From: a virus
DNA length: 64,000 nt
IMG/VR virus record: IMGVR_UViG_3300018080_000002
Coordinates: 64,001 to 128,000 of that record
Direction: 5' to 3' (one strand)
Shown: positions 805 through 53,382 of the stretch, one piece after another
Position numbering within the stretch: position 1 is the first letter of the stretch
Layout of the letters: every line of letters starts with the position of its first letter
Position numbers and translations under genes: made by a program
The notes under the pieces: generated by a model
Databases searched by the model: none
The model's input: the letters and a program-made list of their open reading frames with translations, nothing else
Told to the model about the DNA's origin: nothing

Positions 805-833
805 TCGAAAGCGCATTCGCTTTATAGTATAAT
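805..833 (+). promoter_or_regulatory. Sigma70-like promoter overlapping a CGAAAGCGCATTCG palindrome
   Basis: TCGAAA-17 bp-TATAAT upstream of ORF 873. Confidence 0.5.
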
Positions 834-872
834 TCCATTGTTGATCAACAATTTTTTTGAAGGAGTGCAGTT

Positions 873-1976
873 ATGAGGCATTTAATTTTTCTGCTGTTGT
901 TGATGATCCCTTCGGGGTTATTGGCGCAGGAAATCGAAGAGGAGGAGTATCTTTTTTTACCGGAAAATGATCTCCATTTAGAGGATGGTTACAATGATTT
1001 GAATTTCATGGAAGATTCTGCGGAATTGAATTGTTGGCCTAAACCTCGACCAAAGCCGCCGAAACCTAAACCACCTTGTCCAAAACCTGATCCAGATCCA
1101 TGTCCACCAGATGATCCTGGTCAAGATCCACCACCTCCTTGTCCCGATCCTGATCCACCTTGTCCAAAACCTGATCCAAAACCTGATCCAGATCCATGTC
1201 CAAAGCCTAAGCCTCCGACATGCAATATCTCTGAAGCTGAGTTTAACGAGCTTTTAAGCAAGATGGAGAGCAAGTATAAGCCTATTTTTGAAGGGAATAA
1301 TTTCCGTTTAAGAGTAGAGCGAAAATGGGCTGATCCTACAGTGAATCTCAAGACATCCAGAGTTTTTGGTTATGTGGTTGTTAAAGCATATGGGGGTCTT
1401 GCTAGACGATGTGAGATCACCAGAGATGGTTTCGTATTAGCGATGTGTCATGAGTTTGGAAGATTCCTCGGAGGTTTTTCTAAGAATCGTTGGGGTCAAT
1501 CTGTAGCCGGACAGGGTGATTATTTCTCAACTCTGTCGTGTGGTAGAGAGATGTGGCGCAATGATTATGATGAGAACTCGGCTTACAAGTATAAGACTCC
1601 TGCTTACATTCAGAGCTTATGTGATGAGGTTTTCCATGATGAAAATTCAAGAAACCTCTGTAAGCGTCAGGTGATGGCGGGGAAGTCGATCGCTGACCTA
1701 ATGGCGGTACTTGAGAACAGTTATGTTGAGTTTGACAATCATGATTTTAGCGAAGTCGACAAGACATTAGATTGTCATCCGACCTCTCAATGCAGGATGG
1801 ATTCTTACATTGCTGGAGCCATCTGCAAAAAGAATTGGAATCCGCTTTATATTCCAAAAACAGAGCTAGAATCGGTAAATTATAGCTGTACCGAATATGG
1901 GGGGTATGTTTTAGGGATTAGACCGAAGTGTTGGTATAAGCCTACTCTTCCTTCGTGCAATGGTTCGGGATGCTAA
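873..1976 (+). CDS. Secreted Pro/Cys-rich zincin-like protein, probably catalytically inactive
   Basis: Signal peptide; PKPDPDPCP repeats; YGGLAR...CHEFGR...AGQGDYF...RPKCWYKP, with HExxH and EGQADY degenerate. Confidence 0.65.
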   Translation: MRHLIFLLLLMIPSGLLAQEIEEEEYLFLPENDLHLEDGYNDLNFMEDSAELNCWPKPRPKPPKPKPPCPKPDPDPCPPDDPGQDPPPPCPDPDPPCPKPDPKPDPDPCPKPKPPTCNISEAEFNELLSKMESKYKPIFEGNNFRLRVERKWADPTVNLKTSRVFGYVVVKAYGGLARRCEITRDGFVLAMCHEFGRFLGGFSKNRWGQSVAGQGDYFSTLSCGREMWRNDYDENSAYKYKTPAYIQSLCDEVFHDENSRNLCKRQVMAGKSIADLMAVLENSYVEFDNHDFSEVDKTLDCHPTSQCRMDSYIAGAICKKNWNPLYIPKTELESVNYSCTEYGGYVLGIRPKCWYKPTLPSCNGSGC

Positions 1977-1984
1977 TTCATGTC

Positions 1985-2011
1985 AGGAGGTCCGGTTAAA
2001 TCGGACCTCCT
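1985..2011 (+). terminator. Hairpin, probable terminator
   Basis: AGGAGGTCCGG-TTAAA-TCGGACCTCCT right after the stop; weak U tract. Confidence 0.55.
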
Positions 2012-2186
2012 ATGTACTGGCATATCGTATTTCTGTATGATAGTTTTGTTTGATGTTTTTTAATTTGTAAGCAGAGGTTGTTATGACGTTGAATGATAGT
2101 TTTATTTTAGACTTTCTTTCCAAAAACGCTTACCAGAATTTTTATATTGGAAAATTTATGTTGTAAGAGGAGCGCATAAGAGGGCT

Positions 2187-2387
2187 GTGAATATGTGGAC
2201 ATGGTTAAAAAAGAATTTTATAGACATTCAGGATGAGGAGCTGTTGGCAGAGATTCAAAAGGTTGTTGAGGATGAGGAGCTTTTGAAGAAAAGAAAAAAG
2301 TTGGCAGTATCTAAGTTTGAGAAATTTTTGAAAGAGGGTGGAGCGTTGGCATCTGGCATGTCTCCCAGTGATGACGTTTTAGTATGA
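2187..2387 (+). CDS. Hypothetical protein
   Basis: ORF with SD-like GAGGG. Confidence 0.55.
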   Translation: MNMWTWLKKNFIDIQDEELLAEIQKVVEDEELLKKRKKLAVSKFEKFLKEGGALASGMSPSDDVLV

Positions 2388-2400
2388 TTGGGAATAGAGG

Positions 2401-2925
2401 ATGATTGGAAAATCAAAAGGCTATAGTATGATTTATCACTCTGAAACTGCTAAAATAAGACATAGAATCGATAAATATTTGTTTGAAAAATCAGTGATTG
2501 ATATCGGATGTGGTCCAGACAAAGTTACTCTGGACGCTTTCGGTGTTGATGGTAGACCGCTAAATGGTATTGATTATGTGACGAAGGCGAGAAATGAGAT
2601 TTATCACTTGGATTCTATCCTTGATAAAAGGTTTGATGTTGTTTTTAGCTCTCATGTTCTTGAGCATCTGAAGAGGGATGTCCATGCTCTTAAATCCTGG
2701 TCTAATCTGTTGAATCCTGACGGAGTGATGTTGTTATATTTGCCTGATGATGACTGGTACGATAACGATACGAATCCAGAGCATGTTCAGAGGTATAAAT
2801 ATGTGGATTTTGTGAGGAGGTTCGACCAGTTTGGGGATATTGATTTTTTGGATGTAATAGAGCACTGGCCGGATGTTGGAAAAGATAGATATTCGTTTTT
2901 TGTGGCGTGTAAAAAAAGAATTTAG
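2401..2925 (+). CDS. Class I SAM-dependent methyltransferase
   Basis: IDIGCG, FDVVFSSHVLEH and LLNPDG motifs. Confidence 0.85.
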   Translation: MIGKSKGYSMIYHSETAKIRHRIDKYLFEKSVIDIGCGPDKVTLDAFGVDGRPLNGIDYVTKARNEIYHLDSILDKRFDVVFSSHVLEHLKRDVHALKSWSNLLNPDGVMLLYLPDDDWYDNDTNPEHVQRYKYVDFVRRFDQFGDIDFLDVIEHWPDVGKDRYSFFVACKKRI

Positions 2926-3206
2926 GTATCATCGTTCGGATATTCGATTCTAACGCATCCTGCGTTGCCCATACCGAAGTCGTTTAGAGGTTCATCTCCA
3001 TGAAATTCACCGATGATGTACCCTTCATAGTAAAGTATGTCGTCGTCGTCATACATGCGAAAATAAGATCCTTTTTTGATCTCATCTGGCTTTGCTGTAG
3101 AATCTCTCGGACCCTGCATCCCAACAGCATTACAATTACATGGTGGTTCCAGAGTCTTATCTGCGATATGATCTTTTGTGATGATCCAATCGTATTTTGA
3201 TTTCAT
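2922..3206 (-). CDS. Conserved phage hypothetical protein
   Basis: FRMYDDDDILYYEG...PLNDFG..NAGC..IEY motif; SD AGGAGA. Confidence 0.75.
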   Translation of the reverse strand: MKSKYDWIITKDHIADKTLEPPCNCNAVGMQGPRDSTAKPDEIKKGSYFRMYDDDDILYYEGYIIGEFHGDEPLNDFGMGNAGCVRIEYPNDDT

Positions 3207-3464
3207 TTATCTCTCCTTTTTTTCGTTAAAAATAATGGTTATAAAGGTCAGCATGTGTTTCCATCCAAATCCTTCCATTTGATATCGGTCCTTGGCATCG
3301 CATTTTTTACATATACGACCCCAAAAATCTTTACCGTTAACCGTTTTTACTGCTCGTTGAGACCCCTCCGTAGGTCGCCATTGCTGGCATTCAACGCATT
3401 TGATCTTGCTTGTATGGGCTGAGATTAGCTTTTCAATTTGTTGCTCATATGAATCTGTCATCAT
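3207..3464 (-). CDS. Zinc-finger hypothetical protein
   Basis: CVEC...CKKC; translationally coupled. Confidence 0.6.
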   Translation of the reverse strand: MMTDSYEQQIEKLISAHTSKIKCVECQQWRPTEGSQRAVKTVNGKDFWGRICKKCDAKDRYQMEGFGWKHMLTFITIIFNEKKER

Positions 3465-4063: not shown

Positions 4064-4102
4064 GAAGTTTCTCCCTTTTTGTTTTTAACGGTTTTTGCTG
4101 GT

Positions 4103-4617: not shown

Positions 4618-5595
4618 CTATGGTTTTATGGGCTTTATGGGTTCAGGAAATATTCCAGCATTGGGGTCTAACTCATCAAGAAATACCTTCACTTTTTTCC
4701 CCTTCCTGGTGGTTTTCAATATGGCATGGCCGATCTCTCTTTCGAGTTTAGCCATCCGGTTGAAAGCTTCAGGGTTGGTTTTTCGGACGGTATTCCAGTA
4801 TCCTGCTCCACCTTTGGGACAGCCAACGCAGTTGTTGTTGCAGAACGAGTTATAATTTTCTGGAAGATCAATTCCCAGGCTCTTGAGTATCCAGAAACAA
4901 TTTGCTTTGGATAAGCCATTTTCAATTAGTGGAGTCTCGACTTTTCGGTCTGGATTTCGTGCTTGGAAGTCCTGGCATCTTTTACATTCTGAGTTGTCGT
5001 ATCCGAATATCTCTTTTTTGACGTTCGGGATGAGTGAAAAAATGAGGTCATTAACCTCTCGTTTTAATATTCTTGTGCAGGGACAGCCTTTAGGCGATTT
5101 GATGAATCGCACTTTTTTGATCACTTCCCAGTGATCATTAAATCCCTGCTCGTTTTTCACTGTATCGATAACGACTTTTTTTCCTGCAATTCTTGAGTAC
5201 AGTTTTTGACACTGTTGCATGAATCGAAGGTTGTCTGGCTTTGACGCTGTTCCTGGGTCTATGCAGAGTATTTTTACGTTGTCTGCGCCATATTTTTCTA
5301 TGGCAAGCTTGCAAGCGACTGCGGAGGTTGCGCCAGCAGAGAACCATGCTATGACTGTGGATGTAGTAATAGCAATGAGCAAGTTTTTCAGTTTTTGAAC
5401 TGATACTCCAAGGATTTTTGCGAATTGACGCAATCGATTCAATGGCGGTCTTTTTATCCAGCCAGTTTCGATCTGGCCGATAGTAGATGCAGAGATTCGA
5501 TCGTTCTCATCCATTTTTTCGCTGAACTCTTTTCGTGAAAGATTTAGTTTTTCCCTTTTCTCTCGAATAAATTGCCCTAATTTTGTGGTTTTCAT
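4618..5595 (-). CDS. XRE-family HTH fused to PAPS-reductase-like (PP-loop) domain
   Basis: LGQFIREKREKLNLSRKEF..IGQIETG HTH; AWFSAGATSAVA PP-loop; CTRILKR; NNNCVGCPKGGAGYW. Confidence 0.85.
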   Translation of the reverse strand: MKTTKLGQFIREKREKLNLSRKEFSEKMDENDRISASTIGQIETGWIKRPPLNRLRQFAKILGVSVQKLKNLLIAITTSTVIAWFSAGATSAVACKLAIEKYGADNVKILCIDPGTASKPDNLRFMQQCQKLYSRIAGKKVVIDTVKNEQGFNDHWEVIKKVRFIKSPKGCPCTRILKREVNDLIFSLIPNVKKEIFGYDNSECKRCQDFQARNPDRKVETPLIENGLSKANCFWILKSLGIDLPENYNSFCNNNCVGCPKGGAGYWNTVRKTNPEAFNRMAKLEREIGHAILKTTRKGKKVKVFLDELDPNAGIFPEPIKPIKP

Positions 5596-5612: not shown

Positions 5613-5656
5613 GCGTTTCGTTTTAAAACTCATCAGTGGTCGAAATGACCAGACGC
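5613..5656 (-). ncRNA. Type III hammerhead ribozyme
   Basis: Minus strand GCGUC^UGGUC-AUUUC-GACCA-CUGAUGA-GUU-UUAA-AAC-GAAACGC: full core, GUC cleavage triplet, stems I, II and III. Confidence 0.88.
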
Positions 5657-6714: not shown

Positions 6715-6975
6715 ATGCAGGAGGAATCGTTTTGTCGGTTGGTTTATGCCAGCGAGTCGATCAAAGCGTTTTTTTATATCTCTGGTGTGCGGAGAGTGAT
6801 ACCGAGAACTCAGGGTGTCAAAACCCGCCAGCGATTTCGTTTTTACCCCAAAAAACGCCTCATGACAGAGTACCGATTTTTCAAAAAGCGCAGAAAACAG
6901 TCTTACATGGGTCTGATTGAGATAGACGAGAGAGTTTTCGATTATGAGATTGAAGAGGATGATGACGATGAGTAG
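6715..6975 (+). CDS. Hypothetical protein
   Basis: ORF with acidic C-terminal tail. Confidence 0.5.
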   Translation: MQEESFCRLVYASESIKAFFYISGVRRVIPRTQGVKTRQRFRFYPKKRLMTEYRFFKKRRKQSYMGLIEIDERVFDYEIEEDDDDE

Positions 6976-11618: not shown

Positions 11619-13571
11619 ATGAAAAAGATATTATTTTTGATTTTTATTTTGGTGTTGGGGTGTGCTGCATCTTGGAAAATCACAGAGCAGACAGCGACAA
11701 GGATTGTGATGGAGCTGGTGGAAGATCCAGTTGATCCTACTCCGATACCTCCTGTCGAAGATCCTGTGGAGGTTCCTGCTGATGGTAATGCTTGGTTAAT
11801 GGGGTATTATGTCGGGTATCAGAGAGGTCTATATCCACCGGAAAAGGTAGATTTTACCAGTATCACGCATTTGATGGTTGGTAGAGTTGTGCCAAAGGCT
11901 GACGGGACATTAACTACGGATCTGGATATCGATGATACGAATGGACCAGCTTTGGCGAAATCGCTGGCGGGTTTGGCGCATAAAAATTTAAGAAAAGCCA
12001 TTCTTATGATTGGTGGTGATGGTGCTCACTCTGGTTGGGTTGGGTCAGCCAGTTCAGCAAACAGATCTAAGTTTGTGGATAACCTGTTATCGGTTATGGA
12101 TGCCTGGGGATATGATGGTTTAGATTTGGATTGGGAGCCTATTCTGGATTATGATAAGCCAGACTTGTTAGCATTGATAAAAGAGCTTAGGGCAAAAAGA
12201 CCGAATATGATTTTGACGATCCCTGTCGGTTGGGTTAATGCCAACCTTAAAAATGCTGATCCATGGTTGAAAAATATAGAACCATATGTTGATCGCATAA
12301 ACGTTATGTCATATTTGATGGGTGGTCCTTGGAGCGGTTGGCTGAGTTGGCATTCATCGGCATTGTCCGGTCATGGTGCTCAATATCCTAGTTCTATCGA
12401 GGTATCTGCTGAAGGATATCGATCTGTGGGGATACCAGCGGGGAAAATAGGTATTGGAGTGGGTTTTTTTGGCGTATGTTGGAAAGGTGTGACTGGTCCT
12501 AAACAATCTACATCTGGAGCATCGATAGTCGCCAGTGACAATACGATGAGCTATCGAAATATCCTTGCAAGTTATTTGGTTGAATCTGCATATAAATGGG
12601 ATTCAACAGCTTATGTTCCATATCTTTCATATCCGAACGGATACGGTCCTCTGGGATGTAATTTTATCTCGGCAGAGGATGAATCATCAGTATCACGCAA
12701 AGGGGAATATGTTCGAGTAAATGGTCTTGGAGGAGCTATTGTTTGGACTGTTAATCAGGGGTATTTGCCAGATAAGGATGATAATCCACTGTTGGTTTCA
12801 TTAGCAAACGGGATGTTTGTCGATAGCCAGCCTTTACCGATTCCTGTTCCGACTCCTGATGTTGGACAGGATATTAGCGGGAATATTAGTGGCATTTTTG
12901 AGGTTAGCAAATCTCCATATAATGTTGTTGGTGATGTCCATGTACCTAAAGGAAAAACTTTGATTATCGAGCCAGGAGTTAAGCTGATTTTTAAGGGTCA
13001 TTATAAAATGACGGTTGAAGGTATTTTGGTTTCTAAGGGAACATCTCAATTGCCTATTATTTTCACGGCAGATGATACTGCTGAGGGGTGGAATGGTTTG
13101 AGATGGCAAACTGGTACTGGGCATGATACGACAGGTTTAAATATTATTAAACATACTGTCTTTGAATATGGGAACAAAACTAAAGTGGTTATTAACGGTT
13201 CATATAAAGAAAATCGTGCTGGAGCGTTATTTGTATATGGAGTAGAAAATATTCAGATTGAGGACAATGTTTTTAGATATAACAGATCAAACGACAAATG
13301 CGGTGCAGTTATGATGCTGGCCATAGACGCTCCTATTTCTTTTAAAAATAATTCTTTTGAGGGTAACGAATCTTATCAGCATGGGGGAGCATTATGTTTT
13401 ACCCATGGCAAGTATCAAGATTTGTACGGCGGGTCATTTCAGAATAATAAATCGGCAAAAAATTATGGTGCAATTTATGTTTATGATACGAAGGTGACTC
13501 TTCATAATGTAGGGTTTTCAGGGAACATACCGAATAATTATAATACGAATGCAGTTAGTATTGCTGATTGA
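11619..13571 (+). CDS. GH18 chitinase-like lipoprotein with C-terminal beta-helix
   Basis: Lipobox VLGC; GYDGLDLDWE catalytic motif; INVMSY; GGAIVW; beta-helix repeats. Confidence 0.85.
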   Translation: MKKILFLIFILVLGCAASWKITEQTATRIVMELVEDPVDPTPIPPVEDPVEVPADGNAWLMGYYVGYQRGLYPPEKVDFTSITHLMVGRVVPKADGTLTTDLDIDDTNGPALAKSLAGLAHKNLRKAILMIGGDGAHSGWVGSASSANRSKFVDNLLSVMDAWGYDGLDLDWEPILDYDKPDLLALIKELRAKRPNMILTIPVGWVNANLKNADPWLKNIEPYVDRINVMSYLMGGPWSGWLSWHSSALSGHGAQYPSSIEVSAEGYRSVGIPAGKIGIGVGFFGVCWKGVTGPKQSTSGASIVASDNTMSYRNILASYLVESAYKWDSTAYVPYLSYPNGYGPLGCNFISAEDESSVSRKGEYVRVNGLGGAIVWTVNQGYLPDKDDNPLLVSLANGMFVDSQPLPIPVPTPDVGQDISGNISGIFEVSKSPYNVVGDVHVPKGKTLIIEPGVKLIFKGHYKMTVEGILVSKGTSQLPIIFTADDTAEGWNGLRWQTGTGHDTTGLNIIKHTVFEYGNKTKVVINGSYKENRAGALFVYGVENIQIEDNVFRYNRSNDKCGAVMMLAIDAPISFKNNSFEGNESYQHGGALCFTHGKYQDLYGGSFQNNKSAKNYGAIYVYDTKVTLHNVGFSGNIPNNYNTNAVSIAD

Positions 13572-14574: not shown

Positions 14575-14742
14575 GGGGATAGCGGTTACATCTGGTAACA
14601 GGTGTTGACAGGAGTGAGCGAGGTGCCTTGGCTAGACCGATCGGGCAATGGCCGAAAGTCCTAAAGAGCATCGATTGGAACCCGTACTGATCTCTCATTA
14701 TCCATTAGGTTTTGATGCAGATTGGTTGATGCTCCTATCCCC
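14575..14742 (+). ncRNA. Candidate structured ncRNA, ~168 nt
   Basis: Closing stem GGGGATAG/CTATCCCC; hairpin GTTAC/GTAAC; 11-bp GAGCATCGATT/GGTTGATGCTC; intergenic. Confidence 0.55.
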
Positions 14743-14790
14743 TCCCCTTAAAATACGAAAGCGCATTCGTTTTTTTCCAAGGAGGTTATT

Positions 14791-28219: not shown

Positions 28220-28256
28220 GGCTAGGTTAGGGTTTCCTTAGCCTAGCCGTTTTTTT
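28220..28256 (+). terminator. Rho-independent terminator after MCP
   Basis: GGCTAGGTTAGGG-TTT-CCTTAGCCTAGCC-G-T7. Confidence 0.9.
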
Positions 28257-28266
28257 GGAGTCGTTT

Positions 28267-29025
28267 ATGAGAGAACGTAAAGATATAGAACTGCTGCTCA
28301 AAAAATTTCTGAAAAAATCCCCTAGAAAAGATGATGAAGTACATGCCTTTGCAGAAAAAGCAGGGATAGATCCACACGATTTAGAGGGTATGATATACTC
28401 GATAGCGTTTAAAGCATTGAATGGTAGGTATCTGAAACACTGGGATGTTCCAGATGATAAGTTTGATCCTGATGAGTTGGCTATGGGTGTTGAGATTGAA
28501 TTAGAGCATACAGGAGATAGGAAAATAGCAGAGGTGATAGCAAAGGCTCATTTGTTGGAGTTGCCTGACTATTACACTCGGCTTAAGAAAATGGAAAACG
28601 AAAGCGATTTCGCAGAGTGGTGCGAACAGGCATATGCAAATGCTAAAAGTCTAAAGATGATGTGCGAGTCCTCGTCAAAGCAGGGTTTTTTTGAAAAGAA
28701 AGGCGGAAAACTGAGCGGAGTCTATTTTGGAAATGACTTTGATCATAAGATTAGTTTTGATTATGTTTCGGACAAGACTGCGGAAATGCTTAAGGGGTTG
28801 GATGATGGTGTGTACTCAGTCAATTACAACCCGTCAAACAGCAGCATTGAAAATGTTGCAAAGATAGATGTGAGAAAAGAGCTGAGTAAGCTGAAAAAGA
28901 CTAAGAGTAAGATTGTCAAGTTTAGAACCACACAGAAGCAGAGGTTTACCAAGTCTGCTAGAACAAGAATCCACCAAGCTGATGATATCAGGAGAAGAAA
29001 GATAGATTGGCTTGAAAGGGTGTAG
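28267..29025 (+). CDS. DUF5661-like phage protein
   Basis: ELAMGVEIELEHT...IAKAHL.E.PDYYTRL. Confidence 0.7.
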   Translation: MRERKDIELLLKKFLKKSPRKDDEVHAFAEKAGIDPHDLEGMIYSIAFKALNGRYLKHWDVPDDKFDPDELAMGVEIELEHTGDRKIAEVIAKAHLLELPDYYTRLKKMENESDFAEWCEQAYANAKSLKMMCESSSKQGFFEKKGGKLSGVYFGNDFDHKISFDYVSDKTAEMLKGLDDGVYSVNYNPSNSSIENVAKIDVRKELSKLKKTKSKIVKFRTTQKQRFTKSARTRIHQADDIRRRKIDWLERV

Positions 29026-29034
29026 GAGTTTGAA

Positions 29035-29538
29035 ATTTATAAAAATAGAGAGCTGATCAATAAGACAAATGAACAATTATTAGATATTATATTTGAATCT
29101 ATTGTTCCCAAACATAGATATGCTTTTAATGCTGTTAAGTCTTTGCATAAAAAACAGTGGTTCCAAGGAAAACATAAGGATTGGGGTTCAGATGAATCCG
29201 ATTATTTTTTTCCTTTTGATAAATATAAAAATATGGCAGAGGAGTTTTTTTTAGTTTCGATTCCTGTGAAAGATCTGGATATTGTGGATGTTGGTGATAA
29301 AGATAGACTAAATAGATATGTGGAATTGATAAAATCAGGTGTGGATATGGGTCCATCATGGGGTGTCTACGGTAGATTTAGACGGAGCGGAGAGTTTGTG
29401 GAGCCTCATACTAAAGGTAAGATTAGCGTATTAGATGGAAACCATAGGGCTTTAGCATCTAAAAAGGCGGGTAAATCTCATATTATGGTTATAATTCCAG
29501 ATATTTCTTTTAATAAATATGTTGAGGACACACCATGA
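29035..29538 (+). CDS. ParB/Srx-like domain protein; probable ATT start with leader
   Basis: VLDGNHRALA; frame open to ATT 29035, start context homologous to gene 30618. Confidence 0.7.
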   Translation: MYKNRELINKTNEQLLDIIFESIVPKHRYAFNAVKSLHKKQWFQGKHKDWGSDESDYFFPFDKYKNMAEEFFLVSIPVKDLDIVDVGDKDRLNRYVELIKSGVDMGPSWGVYGRFRRSGEFVEPHTKGKISVLDGNHRALASKKAGKSHIMVIIPDISFNKYVEDTP

Positions 29539-31015: not shown

Positions 31016-31582
31016 ATGTCGAATATTTTAAAAGAATTTGAAAGTTTTGGTTTAATAAACAAAAAAAAGACTACTCAAGAGGCTTACATTGATCCTGAGC
31101 AAGAGCAGGAACAGGACGGTGCAGAACCAGAGGGTCCAGAGGATGATGAGCCTAGAGCAGATGATATTGGGCAAGACTCTGAAGAGGAGGGTATGATCCA
31201 GGTTCCAGAGGAAACCAAAGAAAAGGTCATGGAGCTGCATAAGCTGGCTGGTGAAGTCTATGGATTGATGGCTGGTGAGCCTGAGACGGGTCAGGAAACA
31301 GAGGAATCATATGATGCCCAACCAGACGACGAAACTCCTCCTGAAGCTGTTGGCGATCCTGACGATACTCCTGAAGATGATAAGACCGTTGATGCTACTA
31401 TTGATGAGCTTATATCGACAAGTTGGGGTGGTGATAACGAGAGTCAGGGGAAAGCGATAGAGCTGCTTAAGGGGTTGGCTTTTTCTGATGATCCGAAAGC
31501 GAATGCGTTTATGATGAAACTGGATGAGTTGACATCCGGTATGGACGCTAGTGCGTTAGGTGAGAGTAAAAAGAAAGCTTAA
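31016..31582 (+). CDS. Acidic hypothetical protein, putative head-internal
   Basis: GGAGG SD; E/D-rich. Confidence 0.75.
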   Translation: MSNILKEFESFGLINKKKTTQEAYIDPEQEQEQDGAEPEGPEDDEPRADDIGQDSEEEGMIQVPEETKEKVMELHKLAGEVYGLMAGEPETGQETEESYDAQPDDETPPEAVGDPDDTPEDDKTVDATIDELISTSWGGDNESQGKAIELLKGLAFSDDPKANAFMMKLDELTSGMDASALGESKKKA

Positions 31583-32366: not shown

Positions 32367-32635
32367 TGATTATGAATTTTGTAGAAAACGATAATAAACT
32401 TGCAACGAAAGTGATGTTTGGACAGACATTGACGGAGGCAAGTAACGAAGAAAAAATAAGCAAACTTGAGGTCAAGTTTAACAAGTTAAGGGAAAAGGCT
32501 GAGGTTCTGAGAGATAGGCAGTTTAAGTTAGAGGATGAGCTTGAAAAGATTGTTAAGGCTGCGGATAAACTTGGAGCTGAAGAATTGTCTGGAGTGCATT
32601 TGGATGGTCTGTCTCTATCAGATTTGATGTCTTGA
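32363..32635 (+). CDS. Leader-bearing small coiled-coil protein
   Basis: ..FGQTLTE|AS; cargo resembles those of 53382 and 53656. Confidence 0.7.
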   Translation: MMIMNFVENDNKLATKVMFGQTLTEASNEEKISKLEVKFNKLREKAEVLRDRQFKLEDELEKIVKAADKLGAEELSGVHLDGLSLSDLMS

Positions 32636-32672
32636 GTAATGCGAAAGCGATTTCGTTTTTTAAGGAGTATGT

Positions 32673-33650
32673 ATGCGTAAGGTAGTCGTCACAGGGGGAT
32701 GTGGCTTTATTGGAAGTGCGTTTGTTCGTTTATTTCATGAGAAATACGATATTCTGATTGTTGATAAATTCACATATGCGGCAGATCCTATTAGGATAGA
32801 GGGGTGTAAGCATAGCATTTGGAAAGAGGATATTGCTAAGGAAAATTGGCATGATGAACTGGTGAGATGGAAACCGGATGTTATTGTGAATTTCGCGGCT
32901 GAGTCTCATGTTGATAGATCGATTCATTCGGACCAGGTTTTTCTTGATGCGAATACTGGAGGGACTTTAAATCTTTTAAGGTACTGTAACGTCATGGGAT
33001 GTAGGATGGTTCAGGTATCTACAGACGAGGTGTATGGATCTATACGAGAGGGTGCTTTTTTTGAGCATGATAGATTTAACCCTCGTAATCCATACAGTGC
33101 CTCTAAAGCGGCTGCGGAGCATTTCTGCAACGCTTATTATGCGACACATAAGATTGATGTCGTTGGCACCAGAGGAGCTAATACCTACGGTCCTTGGCAG
33201 TATGCTGAAAAACTTATACCTGTAGCTTTAAAGAAATTGTATGATGGAGGTAAAGTCCCGGTATATGGCATAGGTGCTCAGATCAGAGATTGGTTGTATG
33301 TGGATGATCACGCCAAAGCCATTGAGCATGTTATGCTGCATGGTAAGGCTGGAGAGTTTTATAATGTTCCTGGCACCAAAGAATTGCAGAATATTGATTT
33401 AGTCAAATCTTTGATACAGACTTGTAAAGCTAGAGGTTGGGACATAGACGTTGATAATAGCATTGAATTTGTGGCTGATAGAAAGGGTCACGATTTTAGA
33501 TACAGCATGAATGGTGGAAAAATACACAGTATAGGCTTTTTTAAAACAACGATGTTTGAGGATGGATTGAACGCTACTGTGGATCACTATAAGAGGGTGT
33601 TTGATAAACAAAAATGTTTAAGAGGGGTAAGTAATGGGAACAATACCTAG
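32673..33650 (+). CDS. rfbB: dTDP-glucose 4,6-dehydratase
   Basis: TGGCGFIG, AAESHVDRSI, STDEVYG, YSASK, RDWLYV.DH, DRKGHD.RY. Confidence 0.93.
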   Translation: MRKVVVTGGCGFIGSAFVRLFHEKYDILIVDKFTYAADPIRIEGCKHSIWKEDIAKENWHDELVRWKPDVIVNFAAESHVDRSIHSDQVFLDANTGGTLNLLRYCNVMGCRMVQVSTDEVYGSIREGAFFEHDRFNPRNPYSASKAAAEHFCNAYYATHKIDVVGTRGANTYGPWQYAEKLIPVALKKLYDGGKVPVYGIGAQIRDWLYVDDHAKAIEHVMLHGKAGEFYNVPGTKELQNIDLVKSLIQTCKARGWDIDVDNSIEFVADRKGHDFRYSMNGGKIHSIGFFKTTMFEDGLNATVDHYKRVFDKQKCLRGVSNGNNT

Positions 33651-34406: not shown

Positions 34407-34890
34407 ATTACGAGATGGTTATGAAAATCCTTTGTTCCAGCATTACAGCTCTGAGATAGTAGATTTGTATGGGACTGACGAGGTGATCTTGTATCGATTT
34501 GATGAGGCGTTATCTGATTCTGTAGCAGATCCTCTATGGGACGAGTATGCTCCAGCTCCTAAATATCGAGCTTTTAAAATCAAGGGATTTAGGTTTGACA
34601 TAAGTAGGGATGGCAGCACAAATTCCCCTCATGGAAAAAATACTGAGATCGATGTTACATCTACGATATCCAGAAATCACTTGGACCATGCAGGAGTCCC
34701 TACAGATGTGGATGGGAGGATGGTGAGAGAGGGTGACGTCCTATTGTTTCACGAAAGAGGAGATACGTTCTACTACGATATTATTGGCACGAACAGAAAA
34801 GGTCATGTGAACAACACTGATTCGTGGACATATGTAGAATGTACGATGAAACGACGAGAAAAGTTCACTCCAGAACGAAAACTTCCGTAG
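34399..34890 (+). CDS. Head-closure/neck protein (gp14-like)
   Basis: G..VILY...DPLWDE...EGDVL...YDII; near the gp13-like gene. Confidence 0.55.
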   Translation: MGRLRDGYENPLFQHYSSEIVDLYGTDEVILYRFDEALSDSVADPLWDEYAPAPKYRAFKIKGFRFDISRDGSTNSPHGKNTEIDVTSTISRNHLDHAGVPTDVDGRMVREGDVLLFHERGDTFYYDIIGTNRKGHVNNTDSWTYVECTMKRREKFTPERKLP

Positions 34891-34901
34891 GAGGGTGTTA
34901 T

Positions 34902-35444
34902 ATGCCGCTTAAAAAATCATGCAGTATAAAGGCGTATAAAGACAATGTCGCAGAGTTAATTGGCTCTGGACGCAAACCTAACCAAGCCGTTGCAATCGCC
35001 ATCAGGACGCTAAAAACGGCTTGTGGGGTGGAATCTGATAAGAGGATGAGTCCCAAGCAGATTGTTGGAGAATCGCTAAGATTGCCGAGATTACGCGAAA
35101 TGGCATCCAGTTTAAAAAGCTTTGGAAAATTAGGCTTTTACAACGGATACGATAATTTTGGCGATGTTTTGGATAAATTCGAGGATTTACGGATAGAGTT
35201 ACGACCAACCAAAAATGATTTTAAGGTGATTGAGGATTTTAAAAAGCAGAACGAAAGCGATGGCGATAAGGATCATCGTGATTATTGGTCTGGTATCGCT
35301 AGGCAATGTAATTACGTTACTGATTGTTTGAGATTGTATGGTTTAGCTTTGGAAAATCAGGTTCCAGGTTTGGATGATATTTTTCAGAAAAGAGCGATTC
35401 AGTTGGCTAATAGAGATCGATGGATAAACATAGAGGAGCTATGA
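34902..35444 (+). CDS. Phage protein with MPLKK..QAVAIA N-terminal motif
   Basis: MPLKKSCSIKAYKDNVAELIGSGRKPNQAVAIA. Confidence 0.7.
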   Translation: MPLKKSCSIKAYKDNVAELIGSGRKPNQAVAIAIRTLKTACGVESDKRMSPKQIVGESLRLPRLREMASSLKSFGKLGFYNGYDNFGDVLDKFEDLRIELRPTKNDFKVIEDFKKQNESDGDKDHRDYWSGIARQCNYVTDCLRLYGLALENQVPGLDDIFQKRAIQLANRDRWINIEEL

Positions 35445-36624: not shown

Positions 36625-36900
36625 GTGATGCGTAATCAATATTTGAAAGAGGTATCGGATATTGTCAATTTCATGATGGGTAAATCGGACGATATCTCTG
36701 AGGAGATTGGAGATCCTATCAATGACGATGATGATGCTGAAAAAAGGCTACAGGTTGCTTTGAAGGACATCAAAGATGTTTTGAAGAAAATACCTCATTT
36801 AAAAGATCGCAAATACATCGCTCGTATATTGGGTCAGGTTCAAGTTGATATGGATGATTTGATGAATTATTTTTCTAAAAAGAAAAGATTCAAGGGTTGA
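36625..36900 (+). CDS. Leader-bearing protein (MRxQY/EF family)
   Basis: MRNQYLKEVSDIVNF..ISEE. Confidence 0.7.
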   Translation: MMRNQYLKEVSDIVNFMMGKSDDISEEIGDPINDDDDAEKRLQVALKDIKDVLKKIPHLKDRKYIARILGQVQVDMDDLMNYFSKKKRFKG

Positions 36901-38087
36901 TGAAAGACAAAGCCTCAACAGGAGTTCCTATTATGGTAGAGGAAGCATTGGGAGACATTGTTGAGAGAGTAAAATCGAAAAGCGAAGCTCGTAGGCTGTC
37001 TATACAGACGGGAAAGGAGATTGATATGGATGGTTTTGACTTACCGGATATGGATGTGACTGTATCTGACGATAAGACCAGAATCATTGAGGACGAAAAG
37101 AAATCTGCTATTAGAATGGCCTTTCTTGGTCTGGGTCAAGGCGGTGGTAACATAGCGGATACATTCTGGAAGTATGGATATAGGCGTGTGTTAATAGTGA
37201 ACACGACTGATCAAGACTTCAAAGACATAGAATGCACGAATCGCTTGGTTATCGGAGATGATGTCAGGGGTGCTGGCAAAGATCCAGCAGTAGGTGCGAA
37301 GGTGTTTGAGGACCACAAAGAGGATGTTCTTACAGCTATAAAGAATGCCTTTGGTAAGGACGTGGAGCAAGTAATGATCTGTGTTGGTGCTGGAGGAGGG
37401 ACCGGAGGAGGTTCTGCTTCAGGTGCAGCCAAAGCGATCAAGGAATTTCTGAAAAACAATGGATCTGAAGATGCAAAAATAGGTTTCATTGTGAGTATGC
37501 CAGCCAAGCCGGAGGGTAGTGTAGTTGTCAATAACGCGGAGACGTTATTGGGTATGTTGCGTGAGTCTGTAAAGTTGAAAGAAATAAGTCCATTGGTGGT
37601 AGCTGATAATGCGAAAATTCTTAAAATTTTTCCGAATACGAAACTTGGTCAACGTTGGGATGTTATCAATCGGAGTGTTTGTGGGCTTTTTGATAGCTTT
37701 AATGTGCTTGCTGCACAGAGTTCCAGTTATGCGACCTTTGATCCACAGGATTACAAAAAGGTTCTTAACAGTGGGATGTTGATATTTGGCAGGAGTGTAT
37801 TAGGGGTTCCTGAGACTGGAACAGAGTTGAGCGATGCTATCAGAAAGAATCTTAAAGGTGGTTTTTTGAGCGAGAGATTTGCTTTAACAGCAGCCACTCA
37901 TGCGGCATCCATTATTGTTGCGAACAAAGACACCTTGGACCAGTTGGACCAGGAGGCTTATGATATGTCGTTTGAAACGCTACAGAGAGTCATAGGTTCA
38001 AAGAAACTGGTAATGTATCAGGGAATTTTCGATAACGAGAAAGTTAAGGGGATACATTATTTTACGGTAGCGGGTGGTTTAGGATAA
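36897..38087 (+). CDS. Tubulin/FtsZ-family GTPase (PhuZ/TubZ-like)
   Basis: GLGQGGGNIA, VNTT.QD, GAGKDP..G, GAGGGTGGG, DNAKI, FDPQD. Confidence 0.9.
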   Translation: MMKDKASTGVPIMVEEALGDIVERVKSKSEARRLSIQTGKEIDMDGFDLPDMDVTVSDDKTRIIEDEKKSAIRMAFLGLGQGGGNIADTFWKYGYRRVLIVNTTDQDFKDIECTNRLVIGDDVRGAGKDPAVGAKVFEDHKEDVLTAIKNAFGKDVEQVMICVGAGGGTGGGSASGAAKAIKEFLKNNGSEDAKIGFIVSMPAKPEGSVVVNNAETLLGMLRESVKLKEISPLVVADNAKILKIFPNTKLGQRWDVINRSVCGLFDSFNVLAAQSSSYATFDPQDYKKVLNSGMLIFGRSVLGVPETGTELSDAIRKNLKGGFLSERFALTAATHAASIIVANKDTLDQLDQEAYDMSFETLQRVIGSKKLVMYQGIFDNEKVKGIHYFTVAGGLG

Positions 38088-43517: not shown

Positions 43518-43776
43518 TTTAAGGTTTACAAGATTGATATCTAGTCGCACAAATATGTGTGGCTATAAGAAATTGCCGCATAATTTAAAACAAGAGTTTG
43601 GAGAGGCTCATTTAATGTTTGAAAAAAGTGCTGCTAAGGAGGATTGGGATTCCGATGAGGAAACCACTTTAAGGGATTTACTACTAAGATTAGCGGAGGT
43701 TTTAGTCAGTCGTATAAACGTGAAAGAAAAGGAAAAGTCGTTAGTCAGTATAAAGGGTAATATTGAAAGGTTGTAA
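43501..43776 (+). CDS. Hypothetical protein
   Basis: Coupled ORF. Confidence 0.6.
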   Translation: MSQYNDLRFTRLISSRTNMCGYKKLPHNLKQEFGEAHLMFEKSAAKEDWDSDEETTLRDLLLRLAEVLVSRINVKEKEKSLVSIKGNIERL

Positions 43777-45110
43777 TGTTAAATCTTGGTAATATTGTAA
43801 AGTCCGTACAAAAAGTTTCTAAGGAAATAGAGGAATATCGTAATAGTAGGGTGTTAATTTATAACGAAGATTGTTTGTCTCGTTTAAAAAAAGTCGAAAG
43901 CGATTTCGTTGATTCATTGGTTGCAGATCCACCCGCTGGCATCTCGTTCATGAACAAAGATTGGGATAAAGATAAAGGCGGTAGGGATGAATGGATATCT
44001 TGGATGACTGAAGTAATGAAAGAATGCCACAGAGTAATGAAACCAGGAGCACATGGTTTAGTGTGGGCTATTCCCAGAACATCCCATTGGACTGCTACAG
44101 CATTAGAAGAGGCTGGTTTTGAAGTCAAAGATGTTGTGACGCATCTTTTTGGGTCAGGATTTCCTAAAAGTTTAAATATAAGCAAAGCTATCGATAAGCT
44201 GAAAGGGGTTGATAGGGAAGTTGTTGGTAGTGTTCCACACACAACTGGCATTCATAGAAATCATTCTTTACAGAGGAGTGAGTGGGATGAAAAAGATACT
44301 AAACAAGGCACTTTGAAAAATGATGAGATGAAAATAACCAAACCAGCCACACCCGAAGCTGAACAATGGGATGGCTGGGGTAGTGCGCTAAAACCGAGCA
44401 ATGAACATTGGATTTTAATAAGAAAACCATTATCTGAAAAGTCGATAGCGGAAAATGTTTTAAAACATGGGGCGGGGGGTATTAACATTGACGGGTCTAG
44501 GATTGGTACAAGTGGAAGTGCATTACACGCATCAAAACCAAGATCAAAGAGGACTGGATTTATAAAGGGATTTGTATCGGGCACCGAAACAGAGATAAGA
44601 AATCAAGGCCGATTTCCATCGAACACGGTCATGACACATCATCCTGAATGCGAACTAACGGTGTATCCGGATCATACTACAACATGGGAATGCCATGATG
44701 ATTGCCCGGTGAAGATGTTGGATGATCAATCTGGAATATTGAAAAACGGTGGTGCTGTAGCAGGTAAAGGGTATGAAAAAAATGGGATGTTTTCTATGGG
44801 AAATATAAATAATGCAAAGATTGATTTTGCTGGTGATAAAGGTGGTGCATCCCGATTCTTTTATTGTGCTAAAGCATCACGTTCGGATAGGGGTGAAGGA
44901 AACAATCACCCTACGGTTAAAAACACAAAATTGATGGAATATTTAGTAACACTCGTAACTCCAAAGAACGGTCGGGTATTAGATCCTTTTATGGGTAGTG
45001 GTAGTACAGGTGTGGCGTGTGCTAGACTTGGGTATAGATTTTTCGGAATAGAAAAAGAAAAAGAATATTTTGATATTGCAGACACAAGGATAAAGAACGT
45101 CCTGGATTAG
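43776..45110 (+). CDS. DNA N4-C/N6-A methyltransferase (beta class)
   Basis: DPPAG motif IV, GSGFPKS, HPTVK, VLDPFMGSGSTG motif I. Confidence 0.9.
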   Translation: MLNLGNIVKSVQKVSKEIEEYRNSRVLIYNEDCLSRLKKVESDFVDSLVADPPAGISFMNKDWDKDKGGRDEWISWMTEVMKECHRVMKPGAHGLVWAIPRTSHWTATALEEAGFEVKDVVTHLFGSGFPKSLNISKAIDKLKGVDREVVGSVPHTTGIHRNHSLQRSEWDEKDTKQGTLKNDEMKITKPATPEAEQWDGWGSALKPSNEHWILIRKPLSEKSIAENVLKHGAGGINIDGSRIGTSGSALHASKPRSKRTGFIKGFVSGTETEIRNQGRFPSNTVMTHHPECELTVYPDHTTTWECHDDCPVKMLDDQSGILKNGGAVAGKGYEKNGMFSMGNINNAKIDFAGDKGGASRFFYCAKASRSDRGEGNNHPTVKNTKLMEYLVTLVTPKNGRVLDPFMGSGSTGVACARLGYRFFGIEKEKEYFDIADTRIKNVLD

Positions 45111-46826: not shown

Positions 46827-46857
46827 AAGTCGCCATCGATTTCGTTCGGGGGATATC

Positions 46858-48991: not shown

Positions 48992-49012
48992 ATTTTTTGG
49001 GAGGATGAAAAA

Positions 49013-50800: not shown

Positions 50801-50888
50801 TCTGTGGTCTTTTACCGATTGTAACGGAGATTTAATTATGCTACTCTTTAACCAAGTAAATTTTGTACTTACGTTATGGAGTAGCCGT

Positions 50889-51857
50889 ATGAACAATAAG
50901 TATTTTTTTGACGAGTCCGAATTGGAAAAAATGGTTGAGGGATATAATTCTGGTATGTCTCCTGGTGAGATAGGTAAGGCTTTTGGTGTGTCTAGGCAAG
51001 TAATACATCATTGGTTGAAAAAACGTGGTGTTGAGATCAAGCCTAGATCCCCGTATGGAGTTCTTACGACCAAGAAAGATGTGTCTCAATGGAAGAGATG
51101 GTATCTGGATGATGGTATGAGTGTACGACAGATAGCTAAGAAAGCTGGAGTTGTTAGCTCTACTGTTGTCAAGCATTTGAACAAAGCTGGTATTCAGATG
51201 AGGACAATTTCTGAGGGTAAAACCAAGGTTACTGATGATGATCGAAAAAAGATCATTGATGATTATGAGCTTGGTTTGAACATGGAGGATTGTGCTAGGA
51301 ATGTTGGTTTTTCGATGGATACTGTCAAAAGAGTTTTGTATGAGTCTGGTATTGAGACGAAACGGGGTCGTATGATCAAGTTTAGACGCAAAGAGCAGCA
51401 GGAAAAGATTCGTGATCTTTATAACAAAGGTTGGAGTCTTTCTGCTCTTGAGCGGGAATTAGATACCAGTAGGGATAGCATCAAAGCTGTTTTGAGGATT
51501 TATGGGATTTCGATAAAATCCTATGGAGAGCTGAATGGTTTTGATTTTGAGGATCGGAAAGGCAGAAAATACTTCATGAGGAGTGGTTGGGAGATGTCTT
51601 ATGCGAGATATCTCGATAAACTAGGTCTCGATTGGGATTACGAATTAGAGTCCTTTGATATTGGGGAAGGTCGAAAATATACGCCTGATTTTTGGGTGTA
51701 TAAGAAAGATGGTTCATTAGGTTACATAGTAGAAATCAAAGGGTGGTACACCGAGAAAGCTAAGAGACGAGTGAAACTTTTCAAAGAAAATTTTCCTAAG
51801 TTAAATTTTAAGCTTTTGCAGGAGAAAAATTTGCAAGTTCTAGGTGTTCTGACTTAA
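50889..51857 (+). CDS. Free-standing homing endonuclease-like protein (tandem HTH plus PD-(D/E)XK)
   Basis: Four HTH repeats; RSGWE, YTPDF, VEIKG. Confidence 0.8.
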   Translation: MNNKYFFDESELEKMVEGYNSGMSPGEIGKAFGVSRQVIHHWLKKRGVEIKPRSPYGVLTTKKDVSQWKRWYLDDGMSVRQIAKKAGVVSSTVVKHLNKAGIQMRTISEGKTKVTDDDRKKIIDDYELGLNMEDCARNVGFSMDTVKRVLYESGIETKRGRMIKFRRKEQQEKIRDLYNKGWSLSALERELDTSRDSIKAVLRIYGISIKSYGELNGFDFEDRKGRKYFMRSGWEMSYARYLDKLGLDWDYELESFDIGEGRKYTPDFWVYKKDGSLGYIVEIKGWYTEKAKRRVKLFKENFPKLNFKLLQEKNLQVLGVLT

Positions 51858-51872
51858 GGAGGGTTATTAAAA

Positions 51873-52355
51873 ATGGCTAGAGCACAATCAAGTGATTATT
51901 ATCACGTCATGAAATTTCATGTTGTTGATAATCAAGATAGGCTTAATAGGTTAGCTGGTTTTACCAGCGTGACGGTTCCCGAATACACTCTTGAGGCTGT
52001 AGAGTACAAAGAGGGTATTTGGACGTATCGAAGAAAATATCCTGGGGATGTGACTGTTAGTGATATCACTCTGACGAGGGGTGTTGCTCGACAGGCGACC
52101 TATTTCTATGACTGGATAAAAGAGGCCATAGAGGGTAATCCGTACAGGGTTGACTTTGTTATTTATCAGTATCACAGAGAGGATGTTCAAGGCATGACAT
52201 CTTATCTTGATGCAACGCCATCGAGACGGATTGAATGTTTTGAAGCTTTTCCGATCAGGGTTAAGCCTGGAGCGGATTTTGATTCTCAGACTGGCGATGT
52301 CAGTGTTGAGGAGATGGATCTGGCAATTGAGCGGTTTAACATTGTAGCTGAGTAA
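51873..52355 (+). CDS. Tail tube protein (gp19-like)
   Basis: AGF.SV..PE...EYKEG...KYPG...ITL.RGV...FP. Confidence 0.9.
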   Translation: MARAQSSDYYHVMKFHVVDNQDRLNRLAGFTSVTVPEYTLEAVEYKEGIWTYRRKYPGDVTVSDITLTRGVARQATYFYDWIKEAIEGNPYRVDFVIYQYHREDVQGMTSYLDATPSRRIECFEAFPIRVKPGADFDSQTGDVSVEEMDLAIERFNIVAE

Positions 52356-52366
52356 TTGGAAAAGCT

Positions 52367-52915
52367 ATGGCTAGAGATCAGATTACTGACTTTCTGTTGT
52401 CTAATCGGTTTCATTTACTGGATGTATCTTTGACGATACCTCCAGTATTGATTCCTATATGGGGTTTTACGAGTATCAGTGCTCCAGAGATGACTGTTTC
52501 TTATCGAGAGATAAAAGAGGGTAACTACGAGTTTCCCCGAAAGGTTGTCGAGCGAGCGTCTGTATCTGTTCTAACCCTAGAGAACGGAAGTCAGATCTTC
52601 AATTCCGGTTTTTGGGACTGGATTAGTAAGATGCCGGAAGGTAATTACGAGAAAAAAGATTTATTGTTGATGCACCTGACTGGTATTAACCCGACAGATT
52701 CAGATAGTGTTGGGATAGATATTGGTGGTTTTGGTGTGGCTACAGGGGAATTTGCATTTAGGGTTCCAGGTAAGGCATGGCTGTTAAAAAATTGTGCAGC
52801 GGCTAGGTACAAGGCGGGTTCAGACTTTAGTTCTATGGGTGGTTCAGAGGTTAGCATCCAGCAATTAGATTTAGAGTATGAGGAGTTTCTTGAGTTTAAC
52901 GTAGGTATTGGTTGA
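52367..52915 (+). CDS. Second tail tube-like protein
   Basis: Paralogue: GFTSISAPE...IKEGN...LDLEYE. Confidence 0.8.
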   Translation: MARDQITDFLLSNRFHLLDVSLTIPPVLIPIWGFTSISAPEMTVSYREIKEGNYEFPRKVVERASVSVLTLENGSQIFNSGFWDWISKMPEGNYEKKDLLLMHLTGINPTDSDSVGIDIGGFGVATGEFAFRVPGKAWLLKNCAAARYKAGSDFSSMGGSEVSIQQLDLEYEEFLEFNVGIG

Positions 52916-52923
52916 GGTGTATT

Positions 52924-53382
52924 ATGAGAAACGAAAGCGATTTCGCATCTAAGACAAAATCGATGGATAATGTTCTTACATTTGCGAAGGTGATGTCCAA
53001 GAGTTATAAACAATTGACCGAGGAAGAGTTTGATACGGTCGATGAGCAGTTAGAAAAAGTCAAGATAGCATTCGAGTCGGAGCTGTCTTTATTCATATTT
53101 GAGCTATTAAAAGATTATTCGCATAAGTTCAATTGGAGCTTTGCGTCTCCGAATAGCGAGTTATTTGGTCAAAGCTGGCAGTCTCTACAGGATAGATATC
53201 AGCTCATGGGTGATGCTGATAAAATCGATCTGTATAAAAAGATCGGCATGTATATGATCAAAGTATTTTTAGAGTTGTTTCCGAATGCAGGAGAGCAGGC
53301 AGCGGTAGAGATGGCTATGGTCTTTAAGGATCTTATGGTCGAAAGGCTGAGGGAAAAATCTGTTCAAGCAAGGAAAGTATAA
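52924..53382 (+). CDS. Hypothetical protein
   Basis: GAGG SD before ATG 52924. Confidence 0.7.
   Translation: MRNESDFASKTKSMDNVLTFAKVMSKSYKQLTEEEFDTVDEQLEKVKIAFESELSLFIFELLKDYSHKFNWSFASPNSELFGQSWQSLQDRYQLMGDADKIDLYKKIGMYMIKVFLELFPNAGEQAAVEMAMVFKDLMVERLREKSVQARKV

Follow-up and report, generated by a model that had tools for sequence, protein, structure and literature searches.

Why does the DNA of a phage carry the same 14-bp palindrome again and again, inside genes as well as between them? The question is raised by a stretch of 64,000 nucleotides (the window), which corresponds to bases 64001-128000 of the IMG/VR virus record IMGVR_UViG_3300018080_000002, a single 157,357-bp circularly assembled contig with overlapping ends. 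Short palindromic sites are present in both the coding and the non-coding DNA of this phage, and the most prominent of them, the word CGAAAGCGATTTCG, is found four times in the window and six times in the genome, always on the + strand, being the top-repeated 14-mer of the whole genome. Taking the evidence together, we hold with moderate confidence that this word and its variants are putative docking sites at which a sequence-specific protein would bind the phage DNA in its double-stranded form. A genome-wide protein-binding site had already been suggested in the first-pass annotation of the window; this part of it is the best supported and gains from the signs of selection at the DNA level, whereas the more precise attributions made along with it (parS/ParB, tubC and a LacI-like operator) are not supported.

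The excess over chance is large in terms of both the exact word and its skeleton. Markov models of order 1 to 5 predict 0.0007-0.002 exact copies of CGAAAGCGATTTCG genome-wide, and none of 100 dinucleotide-preserving shuffles of the window contained a single one. When up to two mismatches are allowed, 16 strand matches are counted in the window against 0.42 expected, and the core 10-mer AGCGATTTCG is found in the genome 11 times on the + strand and twice on the - strand, against 0.2 and 0.08 expected. In addition, the skeleton CG-N4-CG-N4-CG occurs 40 times in the genome against 5.7 +/- 1.9 expected, while the same skeleton with N2, N3, N5 or N6 spacers is at or under expectation, and codon periodicity lifts other dinucleotides at the N4 spacing by merely 1.6-3 fold. 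The more restrictive pattern CG[AC][AC]A-N-CG-N-T[GT][GT]CG has 16 sites in the genome and none in simulations. With its variants, the family comprises 16-23 sites depending on the definition used, which is about one per 7-9 kb. These counts bear out the first-pass annotation, in which the copies were judged far beyond chance, with a CG kept at three positions and several copies in mid-gene, and all 11 sites that it had listed were found in place. The members of the family are the following, in window coordinates unless the genome is specified, the open reading frames (ORFs) having been called by a crude longest-ORF rule:

28599..28612, + strand: exact CGAAAGCGATTTCG, in ORF 28255-29025 (DUF5661 protein), frame N-ESDF-A
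32642..32655, + strand: exact CGAAAGCGATTTCG, intergenic, with T6 and the ribosome-binding site AAGGAG of the epimerase/dehydratase gene 32673-33650 after it
43895..43908, + strand: exact CGAAAGCGATTTCG, in the N6/N4 DNA methylase gene 43776-45110
52932..52945, + strand: exact CGAAAGCGATTTCG, codons 7-11 of ORF 52912-53382
genome 131773 and genome 143867, + strand: two exact copies of CGAAAGCGATTTCG outside the window
genome 48992, coding strand: one-mismatch copy TGAAAGCGATTTCG, starting with TG, in the gene of a MerR-type protein, ESDF frame
806..819, + strand: variant CGAAAGCGCATTCG, intergenic, just past the tRNA gene (703-776) and overlapping a sigma-70-like promoter
14756..14769, + strand: variant CGAAAGCGCATTCG, intergenic, followed by T7 and AAGGAGG
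6826..6839, + strand: variant CGCCAGCGATTTCG, of a class with five exact copies in the genome
11956..11969, - strand: variant CGCCAGCGATTTCG, inside the + strand GH18 gene 11619-13571
35252..35265, + strand: variant CGAAAGCGATGGCG, in ORF 34824-35444; the same 14-mer lies on the - strand at genome 29116
46831..46844, + strand: variant CGCCATCGATTTCG, intergenic, past an amidase gene
31494..31507, + strand: weak copy CGAAAGCGAATGCG with one good half-site, in ORF 31016-31582; membership doubtful

The sites follow a half-site grammar of the 5-4-5 type, in which the arms CGAAA, CGCCA and, more rarely, CGAAT are arranged around a centre N-CG-N. The variant classes are discrete and exactly repeated, with five copies of CGCCAGCGATTTCG (three on the + and two on the - strand), three of CGAAAGCGCATTCG and one of CGAAAGCGATGGCG on each strand. 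The central CG is invariant in 16 of 16 family sites, and positions 6 and 9 are asymmetrically fixed in every exact copy. The promoter overlapped by the site at 806 (TCGAAA-17-TATAAT, read by eye) is that of a secreted HExxH metalloprotease gene, 873-1976.

Is it the DNA or the encoded peptide that is kept? Five of the six exact copies lie inside ORFs, four in the ESDF frame and one in the KAIS frame, the sixth being intergenic. ESDF peptides number 5 in the proteome against 0.75 expected, and all of them are spelled GAA-AGC-GAT-TTC, in a phage where AGC represents 13% of the Ser codons and TTC 22% of the Phe codons; the probability of meeting the same codon set five times is about 1e-10 by arithmetic from codon usage, and the 14-mer additionally fixes one base in each of the codons flanking the peptide. 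At site 43895, the methylase homologues read ..ES(D/N)S(V/I)DSL.TDPPAGI, and the F of ESDF stands where Ser occurs in 84 of 93 homologues, with the length unchanged; this copy therefore arose by substitution, at the cost of a conserved residue. In the nearest relatives, compared as proteins only, the orthologues of ORF 52912-53382 are 64-77% identical and all are devoid of ESDF, so that at least the site at 52932 is not kept in position. Besides, the copies share no similarity over the 70 bases of each flank, so that a longer repeat or a conversion tract is excluded; no second motif emerged from this flank comparison, and REP/MITE-like mobile repeats or gene conversion were discarded on the same ground and on that of the unchanged length of the methylase at the site. 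These observations point to a signal that sits in the DNA and not in the protein. The idea of a non-functional by-product (a shared ESDF peptide, codon bias, a mobile mini-element or gene conversion) draws on the ESDF frame of four of the five coding exact copies and of the one-mismatch copy, but it is scarcely credible in view of the identical rare codons, of the flanking C and G of the motif falling outside the four codons, of the copies that are intergenic or in the KAIS frame, of the lack of any insertion or shared flank, and of the analogous words present in relatives. Conservation as the peptide ESDF only, which the first-pass annotation had kept in mind as a possible undoing, disagrees likewise with the rare codons, the overwritten Ser and the absence of ESDF from the nearest orthologues.

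The sites are also more evenly spaced along the chromosome than expected by chance. The main spacing set is made of 17 sites, each either an exact repeat or one mismatch away from the main word. Its gaps have a coefficient of variation (CV) of 0.51 (P=0.003), the shortest gap being 2.6 kb (P=0.005) and the longest 15.8 kb (P=0.0005). This evenness argues that coverage of the chromosome, and not any particular position, is under selection.

Further insight comes from related phages. In the phage of this record, called G0 in comparisons with its relatives G001-G033, the genome has 40% G+C, G exceeds C with a skew of about +0.27 to +0.3, and some 90% of the genes lie on the + strand. Its products include a T4 gp23-type major capsid protein, a portal, a prohead protease, sheath, tube and baseplate proteins, together with a TubZ-like tubulin and an AAA ATPase. 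No cultured phage of the searched collection has a major capsid protein more than 38% identical to that of G0, which argues for an uncultured, deep-branching T4-like myovirus. The nearest relative, compared through one protein, is a 160-kb Logan contig whose capsid protein is 82% identical, and no DNA of close relatives was found among the phage, plasmid, IMG/VR and GTDB collections. The word CGAAAGCGATTTCG does not occur in 1.2 Mb of IMG/VR relatives with capsid proteins of 45-58% identity, nor in five whole records. To judge from their sequences, at least nine of the related contigs examined carry a different 14-bp word per lineage in the same arrangement:

G001 (IMGVR_UViG_3300033074_002026), 129 kb: TCTAA-TTGA-TTAGA (TCTAATTGATTAGA), 13 perfect-arm copies, 21 at up to one mismatch
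G014, complete, 160 kb: TCCAA-TTGA-TTGGA, 23 copies
G033, partial: TCCAA-TTGA-TTGGA, 3 copies
G006, 24 kb: GGACC-GTAT-GGTCC (GGACCATAYGGNCC word family), 7 copies
G022, partial: GGACC-GTAT-GGTCC (GGACCATAYGGNCC word family), 6 copies
G010 (IMGVR_UViG_3300017971_000207), 145 kb: CGACC-ACGT-GGTCG, 12 copies
G028, 64 kb: CGACC-ACGT-GGTCG, 7 copies
G026, 63 kb: CGACC-ACGT-GGTCG, 3 copies
G015, 168 kb: CGTCC-ATAT/ATGT-GGACG, 10 copies
G007, 126 kb: CGTCC-ATAT/ATGT-GGACG, 4 copies

Each of these words is far above expectation, and all are of 14 bp with the 5-4-5 build, their arms being invariant and their centre slightly variable, with one favoured and mostly asymmetric form. The minimum gap between sites is again larger than expected, with P values of 0.0004 in G001, 0.003-0.004 in L167/G006 and 0.0003 in G014. 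No such word was found in the complete genome G005, nor in G019, G024 and G029; several relatives are fragments, in which absences are weak evidence. The word of G001 holds stop codons in three of three frames of one strand and in two of the other (read from the sequence), and because of these stops its copies are concentrated between genes, about half of them lying in the 6% intergenic fraction, often right after a stop codon; the word of G0 is free of stops and can be accommodated inside genes. The placement of the sites thus looks dictated by the coding capacity of the word, and not by gene regulation. Since the words are lineage-specific and share the same arrangement, the reader protein and its word appear to drift together across lineages. 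It may be added that many copies in G001 extend to AAAG-...-CTTT, starting 2-3 nt past a TAA stop codon, and that in G010 another word, GCCCGAGAG / CTCTCGGGC, is abundant as well, being scattered in up to 16 copies. A conserved site position in the gene that follows the capsid gene was considered and discarded, the genes concerned not being homologous.

How might such sites work? A dimeric or tandem helix-turn-helix (HTH) protein would bind the 14-bp dyads on the duplex, each subunit reading one 5-bp arm (CGAAA, CGCCA or, less often, CGAAT), inverted around a 4-bp centre with the invariant CG. A reading on double-stranded DNA is favoured because the CGCCAGCGATTTCG class is found three times on the + strand and twice on the - strand, and because in G006 the word and its reverse complement both occur within one transcription direction. 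Point substitutions would have created about 16-23 sites, between genes as well as in coding DNA, selection would hold at least one site every few kb over the chromosome, and lost sites would be replaced elsewhere. Such a protein would have to reach or mark the whole chromosome and could, like the KorB/ParB-type clamps, load at its sites and move on from there by spreading or sliding; organisation, packaging or self-recognition would be alternative roles of the bound protein. From these patterns we infer protein binding, as well as the marking or organising of the chromosome or a global regulation that would result from it, and an ordinary promoter-bound regulator fits less well.

A rather unlikely alternative is that the signal is read on RNA or on one DNA strand, as a 5-bp stem closed by a GCGA (GNRA) tetraloop on the transcript or the non-template strand, which would act as a weak terminator, as an RNA stability or processing site, or in the ops- or nut-like loading of elongation factors along the late operons. 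The coding strand carries all six exact copies as well as the one-mismatch copy, and the intergenic copies at 32642, 14756 and genome 1894 are followed by T6-7, 6-9 nt ahead of a Shine-Dalgarno sequence. In wider RNA folds of the regions 14740-14785 and 32630-32668 (-12.3 and -9.0 kcal/mol; z -2.9 and -1.8), an upstream CCUCC or UCUUGAG pairs with the Shine-Dalgarno sequence of the next gene; such folds may represent translational masking as a local secondary use at these two sites, by which the family as a whole is not explained. Nevertheless, the hairpin CGAAA-GCGA-UUUCG alone is weak (-2.7 to -3.6 kcal/mol), the in-gene copies show no advantage in folding over shuffled sequence (z -0.8, +0.8 and -1.0), and the best fold at 28599 ignores the hairpin. 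In the CGCCAGCGATTTCG class, the stem is impossible in all five copies, yet the 10-mer core is kept and both strands are used, and Rfam gives no match at the site positions. The T-runs accompany intergenic copies only, the in-gene copies being without U-run, and an intrinsic terminator or a stable GNRA hairpin was rejected on these grounds, so that the GNRA-capped hairpin put forward in the first-pass annotation is not retained. Relatives, among which G006, moreover hold their word and its exact reverse complement within one transcription direction. As for the strand bias, base composition alone predicts about 4.5:1 in favour of the observed strand, and the coding-strand bias of the exact copies is therefore not significant.

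Other explanations keep a protein as the reader and assign it another task. It seems unlikely that the sites serve as targets for a site-specific endonuclease or nickase of the phage, such as the 339-aa protein encoded at 50838-51857 (+ strand), in which several tandem HTH modules are combined with a PD-(D/E)XK domain (DUF1064 / endonuclease I-like). Such an enzyme would introduce either fixed single-strand interruptions, which T5-like phages are known to carry, or programmed cuts for replication, recombination or packaging. Its nuclease motif PD...(D/E)xK is intact, its gene is located between those of sheath and tube, as it is in G001, and among relatives it is found only in G001, G010 and G011, all of which bear words; besides, the dyad with its 4-bp centre would suit a dimeric nuclease leaving a 4-nt stagger, and the even spacing is compatible with this proposal. 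The protein is, however, absent from the complete and word-rich G014 and was not found in G022, G006 and G033, its IMG/VR homologues match the nuclease domain only and belong to unrelated phages, and multi-HTH nucleases of such kind are commonly mobile homing endonucleases, which counts against the proposal. Phage topoisomerase II, another conceivable reader of a dyad with a 4-bp stagger, was discarded as no PF00521 match was obtained. It is very improbable that the sites are host operators of the LacI/PurR/CcpA type (14-bp palindromes with a central CG), copied by the phage to couple itself to host physiology. The copy at genome 48992 starts with TG, the word differs mainly at its two outermost positions from an ideal cre, TGAAAGCGCTTTCA, and lineage-specific words would track different hosts. 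But most sites lie deep in genes and far from promoters, their spacing is even and not promoter-linked, and the asymmetric fixation of positions 6 and 9 is at odds with such operators. Scans of IMG/VR and GTDB genomes gave, among the matches listed, only single scattered copies; as no bacterial genome with many copies figures among these matches, a known host repeat, another reservation of the first-pass annotation, is not indicated. Nor was any LacI-family protein found in the phage, the LacI HTH match inside the multi-HTH nuclease reaching 24.6 bits, under the cut-off of 27. Finally, the sites could be roadblocks akin to stoperators, at which a phage repressor would halt elongation in an orientation-dependent manner and silence late genes in a carrier or lysogenic state, a possibility that we regard as quite improbable. 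In Cluster A phages, more than 20 genome-spread 13-bp stoperators of the L5 gp71 type serve one phage protein, with an orientation tied to transcription (PMC9283540). The main word of G0 is co-oriented with transcription in the late region, 7 to 0 (about 4.5:1 being predicted by composition alone), and an XRE-type HTH gene is present in the phage. The stoperators are, however, asymmetric, monomer-bound, located in short intergenic gaps and carried by temperate phages, whereas the sites of G0 are dyad-symmetric and mostly intragenic and are seen in both orientations in the other variant classes (3:2 and 1:1) and in the relatives; their density is far under one per operon gap, and no integrase or lysogeny module turned up, although no search was aimed at either.

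Which protein, then, could read the word? The evidence consists of presence and absence in a handful of genomes, several of them incomplete. In a Pfam scan of 122 small ORFs, the only HTHs were one XRE-type and one MerR-type. An XRE-PP-loop fusion encoded at window 4618-5595 counts among the candidate readers too. The gene of the MerR-type protein (172 aa; genome 48783-49301, L003:10783-11298, outside the window) is the one that holds the only one-mismatch copy of the word, 57 nt before its HTH-coding part. The protein aligns over its whole length with a family made of a basic N-domain (WY..N...LN..RR.RY..DPEY), one or two MerR-type HTHs and a conserved tail, which is present in 18 of 25 relatives and always adjoins a helicase gene where inspected. 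Of the genomes with CG- or GG-type words that allowed such a check, all five or six have the family (G0, G010, G028, G015, G007 and, weakly, G026), while G022 has only the N-domain, with an RGRP-like basic tail. Regarding the ParB and tubulin systems, ORF 29026-29535, which the first-pass annotation had called ParB-like, has a ParB/sulfiredoxin-like VLDGNHRALA (DGNHR) motif and neither a Pfam match nor an HTH, and no homologue of it was detectable in G001, G005 or G022. The tubulin gene lies at 36897-38084, with the nearest 14-mer site 1.6 kb off and inside another gene, and no TubR-like family was recognised among the ORFs upstream of it; in addition, G005 has a tubulin (42% identity) and no word was found there, so that a TubZRC/tubC link was abandoned. 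Other leads were equally unproductive: a BLAST profile of the type "all word-bearing genomes, not G005" returned only a gp32-like single-stranded DNA-binding protein, which is not sequence-specific, a link to VIPR guide arrays was dropped as two variants lie in ordinary genes, one of them that of a DEDD exonuclease, and the secreted metalloprotease paralogues, which have an upstream site in G0 and G001, are not DNA-binding proteins.

Several observations weigh against the reading as docking sites on the duplex. The coding-strand location of six of the six exact copies and the T-runs of the three intergenic copies are explained by a signal on RNA or on one strand as well. The evenness statistic varies with which variants are counted as sites, the a-priori set (23 sites with up to two mismatches) giving a CV of 0.70 (P=0.055) and a largest gap with P=0.02, and the exact copies all fall among the late genes, between genome 92.6 and 143.9 kb, in about 40% of the genome. 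A six-frame search of the genome with PF02195 (ParB N-terminal) was negative at E<=1, with matches in 11 of the 14 control genomes, which leaves the proposed ParB/parS attribution without its protein. As for the candidate readers, the HTH-nuclease is limited to three lineages and is absent from the complete, word-bearing genome G014, and the MerR-type family is missing both from this word-rich genome and from G001, which have TCYAA-type words, and is present, with the HTH variant GKGISTIR, in G019, G024 and G029, where no word was found. Neither was thus retained as a universal reader, and this distribution leaves the MerR-type protein as the best partial candidate, for one branch only.

The sheath-tube interval, occupied in G0 and G001 by the HTH-nuclease gene, holds an unrelated Ala-rich 200-aa gene in G006 and G022 and extra tube paralogues in G005. 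Beyond the 14-mers, the phage encodes an apparent full dTDP-rhamnose pathway, with an RmlA-like nucleotidyl transferase, a 4,6-dehydratase/epimerase, an RmlC-like epimerase and an RmlD-like reductase (window 32673-33650; genome 31721-32488, 40160-40732 and 40699-41583), as well as glycosyl- and methyltransferase genes at window 59560-60974, rhamnose-type sugar genes being common to G001 and G033. The secreted metalloprotease 873-1976 has a Pro/Asp/Lys-rich linker of about 60 aa, a paralogue at genome 59224-60084 and an orthologue in G001. A pooled Pfam scan of small ORFs (genome 34.7-111.1 kb) gave one member each of Anti-Pycsar Apyc1 (E 1e-22), a cold-shock domain, Lar restriction alleviation, a zeta-toxin-like kinase and DUF2061. 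Finally, the tRNA (703-776) is the sole Rfam match in the window, and no hammerhead ribozyme was reported by Rfam at the gathering threshold for positions 5613-5656.

Are comparable arrays known elsewhere? The closest published description seems to be the repeat of Cluster O mycobacteriophages, a 17-bp dyad TGTTCGG-NNN-CCGAACA with 34 copies in Corndog (PMC4351075), for which a dimeric DNA-binding protein was proposed and a transcriptional role doubted by the authors, the function being not known (PMC4351075). Both arrays have invariant inverted arms and a short asymmetric centre with a mild orientation preference, both have copies in genes and in gaps, both are private to one phage group, and in both sites are lost by single-base changes. 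The sites of G0 differ in being of 14 bp (5-4-5), in having three CpGs and in combining several arm types; they are also sparser, with one per 7-9 kb versus about one per 2 kb. Moreover, G0 is a T4-like myovirus whose relatives have different words, while Cluster O shares one word at mostly conserved positions. In another line, KorB-OB of plasmid RK2, ParB-parS and Noc-type systems use dispersed short palindromes to load a protein that reaches distant DNA (PMC11790492). Loading from dispersed sites would explain why coverage and spacing matter more than position in G0, but the known readers are ParB-family CTPases, and G0 is without a detectable ParB N-terminal domain. With LacI/GalR operators, the likeness lies in the 14-16 bp palindrome with a central CG, a feature shared by 16 of 16 family sites in G0.

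As the evidence stands, the array offers a solid and clearly bounded case of a kind of feature that is known but not explained. A further and more tentative possibility is that it belongs to a clade-wide chromosome-marking system, previously undescribed, in which a fast-evolving protein would read a private 5-4-5 word kept at even intervals, even at the cost of conserved residues. In such a system, the reader of CG/GG-type words would perhaps be the family with the basic N-domain and the MerR-type HTH, and the system might let the phage organise, condense or package its own DNA, or recognise it as such. In the literature, scattered private palindromes are described for one mycobacteriophage cluster, where their function is not known; here, they are met in a deep-branching T4-like group in which each lineage has one word, the half-sites follow a clear grammar, the spacing is even and protein sequences visibly bear a cost. 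If the reader is found, it would reveal a general way for large phages to mark the whole chromosome, and the recognition code between word and HTH residues would become approachable with synthetic DNA and proteins, without culturing.

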